A DNA stretch of 8,796 bases from the IMG/VR virus record IMGVR_UViG_2693429555_000008. The stretch is one strand, 5' to 3'. Source of the DNA: a virus. Its lineage: Duplodnaviria; Heunggongvirae; Uroviricota; Caudoviricetes. A program made the position numbers and the translations under genes. Of this stretch, positions 3,493 through 8,796 are shown one piece after another (position 1 is the first letter of the stretch; the number at the start of each line of letters is the position of its first letter). Below the pieces are notes generated by a model that saw only the letters and a list, made by a program, of their open reading frames with translations, was not told the DNA's origin and did not search any database.

Positions 3493-3768
3493 GTGGCAAA
3501 AGTTTTTACTCCCGAACTGCGGGAAGAAGTGAAGGCGCGCATTGTGGAACTGGTACGCAGAGATGGGCGAAAAACGCGTAAACAACTGGAAAATGAAACC
3601 GGGGCGACGAGACACCTGATAGAAGTTCTGGTGAAAGAGCTGGTAGTTAGTGGCGCAGTATATGGTTCAGGACATGGAATATTTCCTTCGGAGCAGGCTC
3701 GTAAGGACTGGGGAAAAGCCCGCAAAAAAAATGTCGAGAGCGGCAGTGAAAAAGAAGAGCGACCCTGA
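3493..3768 (+). CDS. Hypothetical small basic protein with winged-helix-like segment (91 aa)
   Basis: GTG 3493 preceded by a strong AGGAGG Shine-Dalgarno (3483..3488), 37 nt after the initiator stop. RKTRKQLENETGATRHLIEVLVKELVVSG looks HTH-like. An A8 run (3724..3731) lies near the 3' end where an overlapping +1 ORF continues to 3901. Confidence 0.5.
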   Translation: MAKVFTPELREEVKARIVELVRRDGRKTRKQLENETGATRHLIEVLVKELVVSGAVYGSGHGIFPSEQARKDWGKARKKNVESGSEKEERP

Positions 3769-4045
3769 CCTGATTTATTCATTGCTAGATGGCGAAATAC
3801 GCCGTTACAACAGACGACAGAATATAATTTGTCGCGAGTGTCGTCAGAGCGAAGTTATGCAGCGCATACTGGAATTTTATCAGGGAAATGTTCGGTATTA
3901 ATTGAAGTGACGAAATTAAAGAGCATTAGTTCAGATATTAATTGACACTTCGATGGCACAGGCCCAGACCTAGTCTGGTTGTCAGCTTTGAGCTAGGTGA
4001 ACGTTGGTATCGTTAGTTTGTATTAATCAACGGAGAATAGGCCAA

Positions 4046-4076
4046 ATGACTTTTCTTTGCCTCTTTTAATTATAAT
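4046..4076 (+). promoter_or_regulatory. Candidate promoter for the 932-aa gene (-10 TATAAT 4071..4076; weak -35 ATGACT 4046..4051, 19-bp spacer)
   Basis: Good -10 hexamer in a ~240-bp AT-rich intergenic region; the -35 is poor, so placement is tentative. AAGGA Shine-Dalgarno at 4132..4136 before ATG 4145. Confidence 0.25.
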
Positions 4077-4144
4077 TCAAGTTCAATTGATTACATTGAA
4101 GTACTAATGTGAGTCCGTCAAACAAATAGCTCAAGGAATAGGTC

Positions 4145-6943
4145 ATGTGGGGAAGTGAAAACAAACAAAATCTGGACGTACTGGATCCTGTGCAGTTGGT
4201 GCGTATCGAAGCGGTACACCGGGGGTTCCTTTACCAGCATCTTTACGCTGTAGGCTGCTTACTTTTGGCGCAGAGGGCAGCTATGGACTCAGTAACTGTC
4301 GAGCTTGATGAGGATATTGAGCTGAAATCCAAACAGGAACGTCTCTACATTCAGGTTAAAACCCGTTCAAAACCTATTATGCCCAACGATGTGTCGGGGG
4401 CTCTGGAGCGATTTGTAAAGCTCAGAAATGAGCATACTTCGGCAAACCGCGAAGGGGTGGCTTCTTTTGTGATTATTGTAAACCAGGCGCCTGGACCGCT
4501 GCTTCAGAAGATGATTGACGATAAAAAGCTTCCTTCTGATGTTCTTATTGTCTGGCCCCAGTCGACAGCTGGACGTCACCCGGCACTTCCGCCCGCATGG
4601 AGTACTCTGGCTGATGCGGCCACATGGTGTATCGCAGAAGCAGAAAAGCTGAAATTTTCACTATTGTCCCCAGAATCCTTGATTTGGAAGTTAGCAGGAT
4701 TGGTTCAGCTTGCCGCCACCGGAGGCGATACCAATGGACAACATACGTTTTTCACGGAAGAACTTACTGAACTATTTGAACAGTTGATCGTTCAGCTACA
4801 GGACTTTCCTGCACCACCAGCACTGTACCGCCCACAGAACGAAGAACCTTCTCTCACATCTGGTGAGCGGATCCGTATCCTTTGTGGACTCTCAGGTGCA
4901 GGCAAGACAGCTTGGGCCGCACAGGCCGCATTACACTCCACTGCACTTTGTGCTTATTACGACACCGGTGATCTTCCCGGTCCAGCTCTGGCCAGTACGC
5001 TGGTGCGCGAGATGGCTGCTAGATTTACAGCCCGTGACCAAGACGGTTTGCGCAGGATTTTGCTCCCCGGTGCCAGTGGTTTTGAGGCTCTTAGGAGTTT
5101 TGATACCTACCTGAAAGAGCAGGGTACCACCTTGGTGCTGGTTCTGGATAACGCCCATCGTGTACCTGCGGAAAATCTACTGGATGTTCTGAATGCAACT
5201 ACACATATTCGTTTTGTGCTGTTGTGCCAGCCTCACGAAAACGTTCGCGAACTGGAGGTCATGACGGGGCTACAGCGCGAGGGCCTGCAGGGATGGAATC
5301 TCGATACGGTAGCTGTCGTTGTAAACGATATCGGAGGATTTGCCACCGCTATGGGATACGAGCAGCTACGGGCTTACACTGGTGGTCTTCCCCTGTATGT
5401 AGAGAGCGCCGCAAAAATCGCCGTTTCTGATTATGAGCGTAATGTCGATGCTCTGTGTGCTGAACTCCAGCAACAAACCCATACTGCGGAAACCGCCCAA
5501 GAAATTATTCTGTCACGTGTATTTCAGGGATTTGAATCACTACTTCAGAGCGCGCTGGCATTGTTCAGTCTCTCTGACGTAGGGCTGAGTCGCGAAGAGA
5601 TTTCTACGCTCCTAATCAATTCGCTGAACATTTCACCAAGCAGTGCTGCTTCTTTAATTAGGAAAATGCGCGCTACTGGCACTATTGAAATTTATGGAAA
5701 CCAGACCCTGAAGGTACATGATGCTGTCAGGGGGCTAGGACTGCAACATCTGGAACTGATGGATCAGGGTATATCGAACAAAGCGCTACTAGCGCTGAAA
5801 GACCTTTTAGTTGAAAGTCTTCATAATACCCGCAATACAAAACGGTTATCGTTGTTGACTCAACTTTATATTAAGCTCAATGATGTCACGACGTTGATCG
5901 AACTCTCAGGCCAAGAAATGTTTTATGAGATGGGCGTGACGGTCGACATTCTTGCAAGCTTGGAGCGTGCTGCAACATCGGACTTATTGGGACCTGTTCA
6001 TAAATTCTGGGCATTGGATGGCCTTGTTTTCGTTGAGCTTAAAGACGGAATATCCGACCACATTGCTCAGAGGTTAAACATCATGGGAGCTTTACTTGCG
6101 GAGCACAAGTTCGGCTATCAAGAAGAGATGGCCTATGCAATGAAACGAATGTTATTTTCGGCAGAAAGCAATGATGCACGAGAAGTTCAAAAGCTGGCAC
6201 AGGAAGTCCGCCCCCAACTCCCAGATGAAGAACATAAACGCATCTTTGACTACAACCATGCCATTGCACTCTGGAGATTAAAAAAACTCAAGGATGCTGA
6301 AACATTAAGCTGTAATGTTATACAAGGGTACTATTCTTTATTTGGTATCACACCTGCTGATGTCATAGGAAAAAACGCCGACGCATTATGGAAAACTATT
6401 AATCATTCCGAAAATATGCAGGAACACTTTAAACATATGGCTGATGCTCTGGAGTTGCTGGCCAGAATTCGTGATGCGCAGGGAAAACTGTCACCATTAC
6501 TGCGTATTCATTCGATGAAGTTCTACAATCTGGCCATGGCCCCGGAATCCATGGTCAGGGTGGGCCAAGATCTGGCGGATGAGTTTGTTGCCATAAAGGA
6601 TTACGACGGTGCCAAGGAAGTCATGGAGCAACATGTCCTGCCGGTTGTCAATGAGGCAGGTCTAGTACATCGACTGATTCAGGTTCGAAGCCAATACGCA
6701 GTCATATTAGCACTATCGGGTCAGCATAAAGCAGCTGATGTCGAAATGCAGCGCCTTGCTCCCTATATCGAAGGCCTCACAGGTGTACAGCGTCAAGAAA
6801 TCCAAAATCAATCAAATTACATCGTACAGCTTGCCCATAAAGCAGCAAAGACTAAATTAACTGAAGTTTTTGGTGCGGTCGGCCGGAATGAACAATGCCC
6901 CTGTGGCTCGGGAATAAAGTACAAAAAATGTCACGGTGCCTGA
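4145..6943 (+). CDS. STAND/NB-ARC-like P-loop NTPase, 932 aa, with nuclease-like N-terminal domain, helical C-terminal region and terminal SEC-C zinc motif; candidate anti-phage defence protein
   Basis: Uninterrupted 2.8-kb ORF with its own Shine-Dalgarno. Walker A GLSGAGKT (4886..4909); Walker B-like LVLVLDNAH (5132..5158); HIRFVLLCQPHE resembling an NB-ARC RNBS-B/TTR motif; GGLPLYV resembling the GLPL motif (5381..5398); C-terminal CPCGSGIKYKKCHG (6896..6937) matching the SEC-C metal-binding motif. N-terminal GFLYQHLY and D/E-rich strand followed by QVK are compatible with a PD-(D/E)xK fold. GC content looks lower than in the flanking phage genes. Confidence 0.9.
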   Translation: MWGSENKQNLDVLDPVQLVRIEAVHRGFLYQHLYAVGCLLLAQRAAMDSVTVELDEDIELKSKQERLYIQVKTRSKPIMPNDVSGALERFVKLRNEHTSANREGVASFVIIVNQAPGPLLQKMIDDKKLPSDVLIVWPQSTAGRHPALPPAWSTLADAATWCIAEAEKLKFSLLSPESLIWKLAGLVQLAATGGDTNGQHTFFTEELTELFEQLIVQLQDFPAPPALYRPQNEEPSLTSGERIRILCGLSGAGKTAWAAQAALHSTALCAYYDTGDLPGPALASTLVREMAARFTARDQDGLRRILLPGASGFEALRSFDTYLKEQGTTLVLVLDNAHRVPAENLLDVLNATTHIRFVLLCQPHENVRELEVMTGLQREGLQGWNLDTVAVVVNDIGGFATAMGYEQLRAYTGGLPLYVESAAKIAVSDYERNVDALCAELQQQTHTAETAQEIILSRVFQGFESLLQSALALFSLSDVGLSREEISTLLINSLNISPSSAASLIRKMRATGTIEIYGNQTLKVHDAVRGLGLQHLELMDQGISNKALLALKDLLVESLHNTRNTKRLSLLTQLYIKLNDVTTLIELSGQEMFYEMGVTVDILASLERAATSDLLGPVHKFWALDGLVFVELKDGISDHIAQRLNIMGALLAEHKFGYQEEMAYAMKRMLFSAESNDAREVQKLAQEVRPQLPDEEHKRIFDYNHAIALWRLKKLKDAETLSCNVIQGYYSLFGITPADVIGKNADALWKTINHSENMQEHFKHMADALELLARIRDAQGKLSPLLRIHSMKFYNLAMAPESMVRVGQDLADEFVAIKDYDGAKEVMEQHVLPVVNEAGLVHRLIQVRSQYAVILALSGQHKAADVEMQRLAPYIEGLTGVQRQEIQNQSNYIVQLAHKAAKTKLTEVFGAVGRNEQCPCGSGIKYKKCHGA

Positions 6944-7016
6944 GTCTTTGTACGACCATGCGGGCCTTATTGTCTTGCTATTGCTCTTATGGTTCGCCTT
7001 TCTGATTGATTTCATA

Positions 7017-7045: not shown

Positions 7046-7098
7046 GGCTGCGGGTGCTTGAGGCTATCTGTCTCAGGCATGAACACCAAAGGCAGATA

Positions 7099-7172
7099 GA
7101 GAAAAGCCCCAGTTAACATTACGCGTCCTGCAAGACGCTTAACATTAATCTGAGGCTCAATCTATGAACGGC
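7099..7172 (-). ncRNA. sok: Candidate Sok-like antisense RNA
   Basis: Minus-strand promoter -35 TTGCCT (rc of 7202..7207) and -10 TAACCT (rc of 7179..7184), 17-bp spacer, start near 7172. The transcript would be complementary to the mok Shine-Dalgarno and start codon (7152..7166), contain hairpin GCGTC-CTGCAA-GACGC (7123..7138) and end in a U-rich tract (rc of 7099..7105). Boundaries are approximate. Confidence 0.35.
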
Positions 7173-7376
7173 AAATCTAGGTTAGCCTCTTACGTGCCGA
7201 AAGGCAAGGAGAAGCAGGCTATGAAGCAGCAAAAGGCGATGTTAATCGTCCTGATCGTCATCTGTTTAACCGTCATAGTGACGGCACTGGTAACGAGGAA
7301 AGACCTCTGCGAGGTACGAATCCGAACCGGCCAGACGGAGGTCGCTGTCTTCACAGCTTACGAACCTGAGGAGTAA
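7164..7376 (+). CDS. mok: Mok-like reading frame (70 aa), an in-frame N-terminal extension of hok
   Basis: ATG 7164 with GAGG Shine-Dalgarno 8 nt upstream; in frame with hok and sharing its stop, as I recall for chromosomal mokC/hokC. Its start region is the predicted Sok target. Confidence 0.5.
   Translation: MNGKSRLASYVPKGKEKQAMKQQKAMLIVLIVICLTVIVTALVTRKDLCEVRIRTGQTEVAVFTAYEPEE
7221..7376 (+). CDS. hok: Hok/Gef-family type I toxin (51 aa membrane peptide), HokD/RelF-like
   Basis: Translation MKQQKAMLIVLIVICLTVIVTALVTRKDLCEVRIRTGQTEVAVFTAYEPEE is nearly identical to the E. coli HokD/RelF sequence as I recall it; hydrophobic transmembrane helix followed by the conserved RKDLCEV...GQTEVAVF core. 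Confidence 0.9.
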   Translation: MKQQKAMLIVLIVICLTVIVTALVTRKDLCEVRIRTGQTEVAVFTAYEPEE

Positions 7377-7471: not shown

Positions 7472-7543
7472 CCTGGCATTCTGGTTTACAATTCGCACGC
7501 CAGCCTGAACAACTGGCACCTGCTGCGCCAGCAGAGACAACCG

Positions 7544-7822
7544 ATGGCGCACGATACCAAATTACACAATTCTAATGATTCTGCTGTCTTTGCCAGCAGG
7601 TGCGGACGGCGTTTTCACGCATTCACATCAGACTGGTTCCAGCATCCTCCATGCACTGAAGAGCAGGCTGAATGGATAATTCAGTGTTACCGCAGGCGTG
7701 GATACGAGGTTAAGAAAGCTCTTAGTCTCGACTATCGTCACTGGATAATCTCAGTCAGACTCCCTTACTCCGAACGCCCACCGCGTCCGTCCCGCACATT
7801 CCAGCAACGCATCTGGAGGTAA
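7544..7822 (+). CDS. Hypothetical 92-aa protein, paralog copy 1 (Cys/His/Arg/Trp-rich; Rem-like position after hok)
   Basis: Track ORF 7415..7822 contains the hok terminator, so the start is placed at ATG 7544 (MAHDTKLHNSND...WFQHPPCTEEQAEWIIQCYRRRGYEV...). Near-identical to the 8145..8423 product over the C-terminal ~65 residues. In the Qin prophage hokD is followed by rem then ydfU; assignment is by synteny only. Confidence 0.55.
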   Translation: MAHDTKLHNSNDSAVFASRCGRRFHAFTSDWFQHPPCTEEQAEWIIQCYRRRGYEVKKALSLDYRHWIISVRLPYSERPPRPSRTFQQRIWR

Positions 7823-8039
7823 CGTGCGGGTATTACTTCGACCTGTTCTGGTACCGGAACTCGGGCTGGTGATCGTTAAGCCGGGCCGTGAATCCATGCC
7901 GGTATTCCACAATACCCGGGTACTGGTGGAGCCGGAACCGAAAAGCATGCGTAATCTGCCGTCCGGGGTCGTTCCTGCCGTTCGCCAGCCGCTGGTGGAA
8001 GACAAAACATTGCTGCCGTTTTTCAGTAACGCACGGGTA
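7616..8039. repeat. Tandem direct repeat, unit A (424 bp, ~95% identical to unit B)
   Basis: Base-by-base comparison with 8217..8640, offset exactly 601 bp, with a handful of substitutions. Confidence 0.85.
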
Positions 8040-8078
8040 GGAATAAAAGCAGGCTTTTCAGCTTTTGCAGAAGAATAA
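7824..8078 (+). pseudogene. Truncated copy of the downstream Cys/His-rich gene (DUF968/YdfU-like?), 84 codons
   Basis: GTG 7824 two nt after the upstream stop, with GGAGG Shine-Dalgarno. The first ~72 codons (MRVLLRPVLVPELG...FFSNARV) are near-identical to the 8425 gene; the sequence then diverges at 8040 and terminates (…GIKAGFSAFAEE), at the end of duplicated unit A. Confidence 0.5.
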
Positions 8079-8144
8079 ACTCATCTACAATCTTGCGCGG
8101 GGCTGAACTCCCGCTGAGTAACACCGTGCCACCGGAGAAAACCG

Positions 8145-8423
8145 ATGGCACGCAACGTAAAATATTACAATTCTGATAATTCGCCCGTTCTTGCCTGCAC
8201 GCACGAGCGGTATTCTCACGCATTCAAGTCTGAATGGTTCCAGCACCCTCCATGCACTGAAGAGCAGGCGGAATGGATAATTCAGTGTTACCGCAGGCGC
8301 GGATACGAGGTTAAGAAAGCTCTTAGTCTCGACTACCGTCACTGGATAATCTCAGTCAGATTGCCTAACTCCGAACGCCCACCGCGTCCGTCCCGTACAT
8401 TCCAGCAACGCATCTGGAGGTAA
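8145..8423 (+). CDS. Hypothetical 92-aa protein, paralog copy 2
   Basis: ATG 8145 with GGAGA Shine-Dalgarno (8134..8138); MARNVKYYNSDNSPVLACTHERYSHAFKSEWFQHPPCTEEQ.... The N-terminal ~25 residues differ from copy 1; the rest is near-identical. Confidence 0.6.
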   Translation: MARNVKYYNSDNSPVLACTHERYSHAFKSEWFQHPPCTEEQAEWIIQCYRRRGYEVKKALSLDYRHWIISVRLPNSERPPRPSRTFQQRIWR

Positions 8424-8640
8424 CGTGCGGGTATTACTTCGACCTGTTCTGGTACCGGAACTCGGGATGGTGGTCGTTAAGCCGGGCCGTGAATCCATGC
8501 CGGTATTCCACAATACCCGGGTACTGGTGGAGCCGGAACCGAAAAGCATGCGTAATCTGCCGTCCGGGGTCGTTCCTGCCGTTCGCCAGCCGCTGGTGGA
8601 AGACAAAACATTGCTGCCGTTTTTCAGTAACGCACGGGTA
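8217..8640. repeat. Tandem direct repeat, unit B
   Basis: See unit A. Confidence 0.85.
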
Positions 8641-8796
8641 ATTCGTGCTGCTGGTGGTGCTGGTGCATTGTCTGACTGGCTGTTGTGCCATATTAAATCC
8701 TGCCAGTGGCCACACGGCGATTATCATCACAGCGAAACCGTCATTCACCGTTATGGTACCGGCGCAATGGTGTTGTGCTGGCACTGCGACAACCAG
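8425..8796 (+). CDS. Cys/His-rich phage protein, 5' part (DUF968/YdfU-like?), continues beyond the window
   Basis: GTG 8425 translationally coupled to the upstream gene (GGAGG 8416..8420); open to the window end (124 codons). ...IRAAGGAGALSDWLLCHIKSCQWPHGDYHHSETVIHRYGTGAMVLCWHCDNQ contains C/H clusters suggesting a metal-binding domain. Confidence 0.6.
   Translation, partial: MRVLLRPVLVPELGMVVVKPGRESMPVFHNTRVLVEPEPKSMRNLPSGVVPAVRQPLVEDKTLLPFFSNARVIRAAGGAGALSDWLLCHIKSCQWPHGDYHHSETVIHRYGTGAMVLCWHCDNQ

Follow-up and report, generated by a model that had tools for sequence, protein, structure and literature searches.

The analyzed window, the whole 8,796-nucleotide (nt) stretch of the Caudoviricetes record IMGVR_UViG_2693429555_000008 from IMG/VR, carries on its + strand, at positions 4145..6943, a complete open reading frame (ORF) with an ATG start, 932 amino acids (aa) and a stop codon, which corresponds to a single-protein gene of the antiviral STAND type. 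The evidence supports the conclusion that its product is a member of the known Avs, or bacterial NLR-like, kind, that it occupies a genuine prophage cargo slot and that it fits the established Avs paradigm. By analogy with characterized receptors, we consider it likely that the protein is an Avs-type one-protein defense receptor, carried as prophage cargo and working broadly by the mechanism proposed below. The tripartite layout that a sequence-only reading of this stretch had ascribed to the protein (nuclease effector, STAND NTPase and helical sensor) was sustained by profile matches, fold searches, invariant catalytic residues, one relative in which TIR takes the place of the nuclease, and the presence of defense-island neighbors. 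The gene would provide a clean natural case in which the defined cargo slot of a lambdoid prophage harbors a suicide receptor of the NLR-like sort.

The 932-aa ORF is the longest in the ORF list of the window, threefold over the next one (316 aa), and the probability of 932 stop-free codons at the base composition of the window is ~1e-21. An identical coding sequence (CDS) is present in RefSeq (WP_000264572.1), under the name 'SEC-C metal-binding domain-containing protein'. All three observations agree with the single gene proposed earlier at this position, and the AT-rich upstream region and Shine-Dalgarno sequence proposed with it were recovered as well: the intergenic segment 3902-4144 (243 nt) has a GC content of 37%, and AAGGA lies at 4133-4137, 7 nt 5' of the ATG. 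The spacer at 3991..4144 (+), also AT-rich, is specific to the cassette, as homology to prophages without the gene (loci L002 and L003) stops at 3990. The gene had also been described as more AT-rich than its neighbors, which did not hold for its full length (48.0% GC, vs. 48.5% upstream and 48.9% in the whole window); GC content was lower in its C-terminal half only (45.2%). A foreign origin based on composition was consequently rejected, the GC content of the gene being close to that of its surroundings.

All the motifs quoted in the sequence-only reading were located in the protein at the expected places: GLSGAGKT at aa 248-255, LVLVLDNAH at 330-338, HIRFVLLCQPHE at 354-365, GGLPLYV at 413-419 and CPCGSGIKYKKCHG at 918-931. 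The N-terminal domain (aa ~22-216; 4208..4792, +) was assigned by profiles and fold matches to the Cap4/LmuA/DUF4297-type PD-(D/E)xK nucleases, with putative catalytic residues D55, D57 and Q70-x-K72 (nt 4298-4366). In Pfam, Cap4_nuclease matched aa 25-77 over its gathering threshold (27.1 bits; cutoff 26.2). Matches in PADLOC were at the domain level only, namely an LmuA/DUF4297/HamA nuclease at the N-terminus, where LmuA covered aa 26-119 and HamA was weak (E 0.0064), in addition to the SEC-C tail. Searches of NCBIfam and PHROGs retrieved no full-length family, only the SEC-C tail and one weak, sub-threshold DUF4297 match at the N-terminus (NCBIfam, E 2.9e-4), and sequence searches of the PDB, with either the protein or a profile of 41 sequences, gave matches limited to SecA and YchJ zinc peptides. 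At the fold level, the N-terminal domain matched LmuA (11.8), AbCap4 (11.3) and HamA. The nuclease-like character previously suggested for this region therefore stands, while its size had been underestimated (~200-225 residues instead of ~150).

The central part of the protein (aa 227-540; 4823..5764, +) was identified by motifs and fold matches as a STAND nucleotide-binding oligomerization (NOD) module, comprising a nucleotide-binding domain (NBD), a helical domain and a winged-helix domain (WHD). Its motifs appear in order: Walker A (G248-T255) and Walker B (D335-N336) in the NBD, GxP (G414-P416) in the helical domain, and an MHD-like pair (H525-D526) that provides the conserved His of the WHD. 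AAA_22 matched aa 239-364 over the gathering threshold of Pfam (32.6 bits), and AAA_16 was sub-threshold. The best structural matches for aa 227-540 were the NOD modules of MalT, Apaf-1, PH0952 (6MFV) and plant NB-ARC proteins, and a search with Foldseek using the full-length AlphaFold2 model (built from 41 homologues; mean predicted local distance difference test, pLDDT, 79) retrieved the STAND and TPR protein 6MFV (3.9e-12), plant NLR resistosomes and EfAvs5. Reading the AAA_22 match as a replication initiator, or as a TniB- or MuB-like AAA+ protein, was rejected, as STAND NODs scored far higher.

The C-terminal ~470 residues were all-helical in the AlphaFold2 model, in agreement with the helical region of ~500 residues anticipated for this part of the protein. 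Within them, a TPR-like alpha-solenoid of ~370 residues (aa 541-909; 5765..6871, +), all-helical in both the full-length model and a separate model of the sensor alone (pLDDT 88, predicted template-modeling score 0.84), is the presumed sensor. The sensor-only model matched generic TPR solenoids only (LGN, APC5 and Rap phosphatases) when compared with the PDB in Foldseek, at E>=7e-4 and template-modeling scores <0.5, and showed no specific neighbor among solved structures that would point to a trigger. From the end of the NTPase seed onwards, aa 436-932 represent ~497 aa, more than the at least 400 aa taken as the mark of a sensor by Lee et al. 2026 (bioRxiv 10.64898/2026.01.04.697583; Nature, PMC13581612).

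The protein belongs to a large family. A word-index search returned 933 homologues, with a near-constant length of ~932 aa among the 120 best listed, from Enterobacterales, Vibrio, Shewanella, Alteromonas, Aeromonas and Pseudomonas, and an exhaustive profile search (E<=1e-30) returned 392 clusters at the 50%-identity level, spread over prophages, IncHI1B plasmids, Pseudomonas megaplasmids and islands. No match to the protein was found in the INPHARED phage collection. In 60 representatives with 27-47% identity to the protein of the window, the invariant positions were D55, D57, Q70 and K72 of the nuclease and G251, G253, K254, D335 and P416 of the NOD, with G193 and Y271 as the sole others, and the His-Asp pair of the WHD (H525-D526) was at least 90% conserved. 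This strict conservation indicates that both enzymatic centers are under purifying selection.

The architecture was almost fixed in the family. Among 150 representatives the only alternative effector was found in P0336 (893 aa), where a ThsB-like TIR domain (1e-25, aa 11-154) substitutes for the Cap4 nuclease while NOD, sensor and SEC-C are retained; the N-terminus is accordingly a fused, exchangeable effector of a defense type, as seen in the Pfam Cap4_nuclease match, the LmuA and Cap4 folds and this TIR swap. In two other members, P0284 (1010 aa) and P0315 (1054 aa), a domain of ~100 residues homologous to the N-terminus of PD-T7-1 stands in place of the SEC-C tail, suggesting that the C-terminal end of the protein, too, serves as a slot for exchangeable modules.

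The element that hosts the gene is a Rac/Qin-like lambdoid prophage of E. coli, located beside a tRNA-Ser gene and mtfA. The gene order runs from cI/cro-like genes, YdaS/YdaT, a replisome organiser and a frameshifted DUF977 gene to the STAND gene, followed by sok/hokD, DUF968, rusA and Q. The cassette spans ~3991-6966, as homology to prophages without the gene breaks at 3990 and returns at 6967-6987. On its left flank lies the frameshifted DUF977 gene (3493..3901, +), which ends the replication module and both halves of which match PF06163; on its right flank (7052..7376, +) lie the sok antitoxin RNA (7052-7226; Rfam RF01794, 110 bits) and the hokD toxin gene (7221-7376; Pfam HOK_GEF, 1e-22; hokD in RefSeq). 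The location between replication genes and a hok module, as originally described, was therefore correct.

The frequency of the slot and of its cargo was estimated in 5,426 complete E. coli genomes, counting the upstream 1.6 kb at >=80% coverage. This flank was present in at least 1,516 genomes, and the STAND allele in 16, always in the same slot; the ORF was intact in 15 of the latter, at 99.3-100% identity. In the remaining one (NZ_OZ546984.1, 361511-365562) the gene is split by an IS3-like element, ISEc52, and annotated as two fragments. The carrier prophages are mosaic, differing in their integrase, immunity and late modules, and other occupants of the slot between DUF977 and hok were QueH, strings of small ORFs and IS1. 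This contrast between flank and gene, together with the varied contents of the slot, fits the view of the gene as accessory (moron) cargo at a variable position. In two related prophages the same slot was filled differently: in strain PU-1 (L017, 6111-8090) by two unknown genes of ~320 aa without a PADLOC match, which could represent further defense cargo, and in E. coli g1-11 (L018, 6176-7510) by a gene in the opposite orientation whose FRG-domain product gave a match of 7e-99 to PDC-S15, a candidate defense family of PADLOC. Since the slot between DUF977 and hok also holds other candidate defense genes, new systems could profitably be sought there.

Beyond this prophage, members of the family were found as single genes in defense islands and on mobile elements. 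A second allele, ~72% identical, occurs in about 35 further E. coli genomes; in the one inspected its immediate neighbor is a Gabija-like nuclease/UvrD pair, on an island that carries an integrase. Such a pair, formed by an OLD-TOPRIM ATPase and UvrD, was located immediately upstream of members in Vibrio cholerae (L006, 5754-9778), Yersinia enterocolitica (L011, 6511-9655) and this second E. coli allele (L020, 5511-8655), with the same orientation as the member in Vibrio but a divergent one in Yersinia and E. coli. In four Pseudomonas island loci (L007-L010) members adjoin AbiH, which is also close by in the Vibrio locus. The adjacency of Gabija-like pairs and AbiH may reflect recurrent co-transfer or functional pairing. 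Copies were also found on IncHI1B plasmids and Pseudomonas megaplasmids, and homology to the plasmid copies runs exactly from the start codon to the stop. The absence of a conserved neighbor indicates that the STAND gene is a one-gene module.

Based on these features, and on analogy with SeAvs3 and SeAvs7, the following mechanism can be proposed. In the uninfected cell the protein would be an ADP-bound, auto-inhibited monomer. A protein of the infecting phage would bind the solenoid, upon which the His-Asp lock of the WHD would open and ATP would replace ADP. The NOD modules would then oligomerize, probably into a tetramer, and the juxtaposed Cap4 nuclease domains would cut double-stranded DNA (dsDNA) indiscriminately. 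The infection would be aborted, and both the lysogen population and its prophage would be protected.

Several points weigh against this interpretation. Defense, oligomerization and nuclease activity are predictions drawn from analogy. No PADLOC model for Avs or NLR systems matched any of 36 family members, and no sequence similarity was detected to the NTPase seeds of Avs2, Avs3, Avs4 or Avs7 or to any solved Avs chain, so that the mechanism is transferred from analogues rather than from close homologues. The usual Walker B of STAND proteins is D-D or D-E; here it is D-N, and the protein may therefore bind ATP with little hydrolysis. Moreover, the promoter scan detected no sigma-70 consensus on the + strand of the upstream spacer, and promoter and terminator signals did not exceed shuffled expectation; with no promoter detected upstream and the gene co-oriented with the early-right operon, expression might occur chiefly once the prophage is induced, and less during lysogeny.

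Among the explanations that compete with a receptor for phage proteins, the one that survives best is that of a nuclease-NTPase defense protein that senses nucleic-acid states (DNA ends, damage or replication intermediates) or host perturbation, as Lamassu and Hachiman do, which we regard as unlikely. The best profile and fold matches of the N-terminal domain, LmuA and HamA, would agree with it, as would the generic TPR matches of the solenoid; in the published screen, Avs22-24 defended but yielded no phage-protein trigger, and SEC-C domains bind SecB and ribosomes of the host, which would fit a guard-type sensor. This explanation is, however, at odds with the presence of a STAND NOD and a long solenoid in the protein, with no SMC or helicase partner, and with Avs3, Avs7, Avs8 and Avs10-21, the characterized Avs proteins of such a layout considered here, which sense phage proteins through the solenoid. 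Improbable in our view is a role other than anti-phage, in which the STAND protein would be a signaling or regulatory element, or an addiction or competition module serving the mobile element, e.g. by controlling prophage induction or by killing cells that lose elements or are invaded by them. Finally, a decaying or inactive remnant in the present prophage is highly improbable: the adjoining DUF977 gene is frameshifted, the closest copy in a complete genome comes with an integrase pseudogene and an IS3 element interrupts the gene in one genome, but 15 of the 16 genomes keep an intact ORF at nearly full identity and all catalytic residues are retained.

The protein ends in a SEC-C (SecA-type) zinc-binding motif placed on a flexible C-terminal end (aa 914-931; 6884..6937, +; Pfam 8e-10). 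The motif had been noticed from the sequence, and the Pfam score (PF02810; 38.8 bits, cutoff 20.4), the CxCx8C[H/C] spacing and the alignment with SecA peptides leave it well established. The tail matches the C-terminal zinc-domain peptides of SecA (1sx0 and 1ozb) and YchJ-C (9l6b), and the last 20 residues, VGRNEQCPCGSGIKYKKCHG, align almost residue for residue with the SecA peptide. In the model, pLDDT drops past the final helix and the last ~25 residues have low confidence. C918, C920, C929 and H930 are kept wherever the tail exists, which is the case in 66 of 104 full-length representatives; being missing in about a third of them, the tail is an accessory element, possibly serving in docking or regulation.

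Besides SecA, the SEC-C proteins include YchJ and YecA, and a SEC-C-type motif was also found near the C-terminal end of the PADLOC models PDLC00833, PDLC00865 and PDLC00870-872 (E2, E1-E2) and PDLC04917 (PDC-S12), while in the validated lactococcal protein Rugutis it is placed at the N-terminus. In the literature searched, no discussion was found of STAND or Avs proteins that carry SEC-C, nor of the motifs near the C-termini of several defense-associated models, and the only anti-phage SEC-C protein was Rugutis. The metal-binding domain of SecA binds SecB and ribosomes (bioRxiv 10.1101/613315); in SecA it serves protein export through these partners, whereas on the STAND family it is optional. 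A more specific and rather doubtful alternative is that the family represents an unnamed Avs clade with a functional SEC-C tail. The tail would attach the receptor to the ribosome or to SecB, or else work as a metal or redox switch, and a host factor would be included in the sensing complex. Docking of a host factor by the tail is conceivable because the Avs7 complex incorporates EF-Tu (Lee et al. 2026). If true, the tails on CBASS E2-type proteins, PDC-S12 and Rugutis would mark a shared, unrecognized 'host-factor docking' module of bacterial immunity. Present in about two-thirds of members and recurring on other defense proteins, the SEC-C tail offers a way to ask if immune receptors of bacteria enlist the chaperones or ribosomes of the host.

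Other observations concerned the remainder of the window and the related prophages. The frameshift leaves DUF977 as a pair of ORFs that overlap (3493-3768 and 3650-3901). RefSeq lists the gene as a pseudogene in the genome closest to the window, whereas TUM13064 and SC418, which also carry the STAND gene, have an intact DUF977. Directly downstream of the STAND gene, sok/hokD forms a complete type I toxin-antitoxin module; in Qin of K-12, relBE lies upstream of hokD at the equivalent place. In two loci (L002 and L016) a related prophage stops immediately downstream of DUF977, where genes for a BCCT transporter, DUF2254 and LysR begin; these are truncated remnants, deleted up to the very point at which the cargo slot starts on its left side. 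Towards the end of the window, 7527-7826 and 8128-8427 (extending to 8796) are tandem copies, spaced by 601 nt and diverged to 86% identity, of a 'hypothetical protein + DUF968 5' end' unit, the first DUF968 copy being truncated at 8078. As positions 8128-8796 align back to L001 (23383-24051, 93%), the window holds an extra, diverged copy that is missing from this closest complete genome. Upstream, an overlapping YdaS-like/YdaT-like pair (PF15943 and PF06254) was found at 1622-2312, preceded at 1102-1563 on the - strand by a divergent repressor-like ORF of 153 aa without a Pfam match. The immunity region varies among carriers of the STAND gene.

When compared with known systems, the MalT, Apaf-1, PH0952 and plant NB-ARC proteins share with the window protein the common order of Walker A/B, GxP ('GLPL') and the His-Asp pair of the WHD ('MHD'-like), but where the window protein has a nuclease their output domain is a LuxR helix-turn-helix (HTH), a CARD or a coiled coil, and they are not mobile defense cargo. 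A MalT-type transcription factor was rejected, as the window protein has no HTH and ends in SEC-C; an HTH profile was detected in one of 36 relatives (HTH_Crp_2, E 4e-4). With LmuA, Cap4 and HamA (DUF4297/DUF1837 PD-(D/E)xK) the similarity lies in the N-terminal domain, which is homologous by profile and fold and keeps the D...QxK signature. The difference lies in control, exerted on LmuA by the SMC protein LmuB, on Cap4 by SAVED and a cyclic oligonucleotide, and on HamA by the helicase HamB, while here the nuclease is fused to a STAND NOD and a solenoid. Lamassu was rejected because only the nuclease domain matches LmuA and neither the window nor the annotated locus contains an SMC gene, a CBASS Cap4 effector because no SAVED or CD-NTase match was obtained, and Hachiman because the HamA match is weak and no helicase is adjacent in the prophage.

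Membership in Avs1-5 (AVAST I-V) was also discarded, as the AVAST/Avs hidden Markov models (HMM) gave no match to the window protein (E<=1) and none to 36 relatives (E<=1e-3); Avs2, Avs3 and Avs4 were further excluded by the lack of similarity to their NTPase seeds, and Avs1 and Avs5 were compared by HMM only. PADLOC gave no match to PD-Lambda-4 (Avs8), assuming that the model is present in PADLOC v2, a version that Avs10-24 post-date. The family is already catalogued, nonetheless. Lee et al. 2026 compiled in their Table S1 a curated set of 656 defense-related STAND NTPase seeds, gathered from earlier predicted defense STANDs and from BLAST finds with known STANDs, Cap4, Mrr and other effectors, and they describe 589 clades, 684 sensor clusters and ~110 cloned systems (Avs8, Avs10-24); for Avs11-24 their text provides neither architectures nor accessions. 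Seed #193 of that table, WP_021564393.1 (Escherichia; NTPase 227-435), is identical to the window protein at 207 of 209 positions (99%) and corresponds to the gene in the same prophage slot of strain TUM13064. Calling the system 'undescribed', as had been done, was consequently an overstatement, the more so as Cap4, STAND and TPR in succession are the layout of Avs3 and Avs7. What remains of its novelty is that no 2023 PADLOC model covers the protein and that no text on a SEC-C-tailed STAND was found; searches of the literature by accession (WP_000264572 and WP_021564393) returned nothing relevant.

The Cap4-STAND-TPR layout is shared with SeAvs3 (PDB 8DGC; Gao et al. 2022), which differs from the window protein in being a terminase sensor of ~2,000 residues. 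Avs7 (Lee et al. 2026) is defined by a sensor found on several NTPase clades. Membership in Avs7 at the NTPase level was rejected for lack of significant similarity to its seed (WP_079981830.1, 261-469): the best BLASTP match, out of register, covered 20 residues at E 0.19, while the match with the family profile was limited to the P-loop. A relationship at the level of the sensor may still exist. The bilobed Avs7 sensor is joined to at least 20 effectors, plus SIR2 in Dsr1, in contrast to the almost fixed architecture of the family studied here, none of whose 36 members matched the PADLOC Dsr1 model, and no SEC-C tail is reported for Avs7. SeAvs7 (PDB 9N00/9N01/9YIX) nevertheless presents the same order of Cap4, STAND NTPase and TPR sensor, with a Cap4 domain at 2-225 vs. 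~1-226 here, and in SeAvs7 the binding of a phage protein to the sensor leads to an ATP-dependent tetramer and to cleavage of dsDNA by Cap4.

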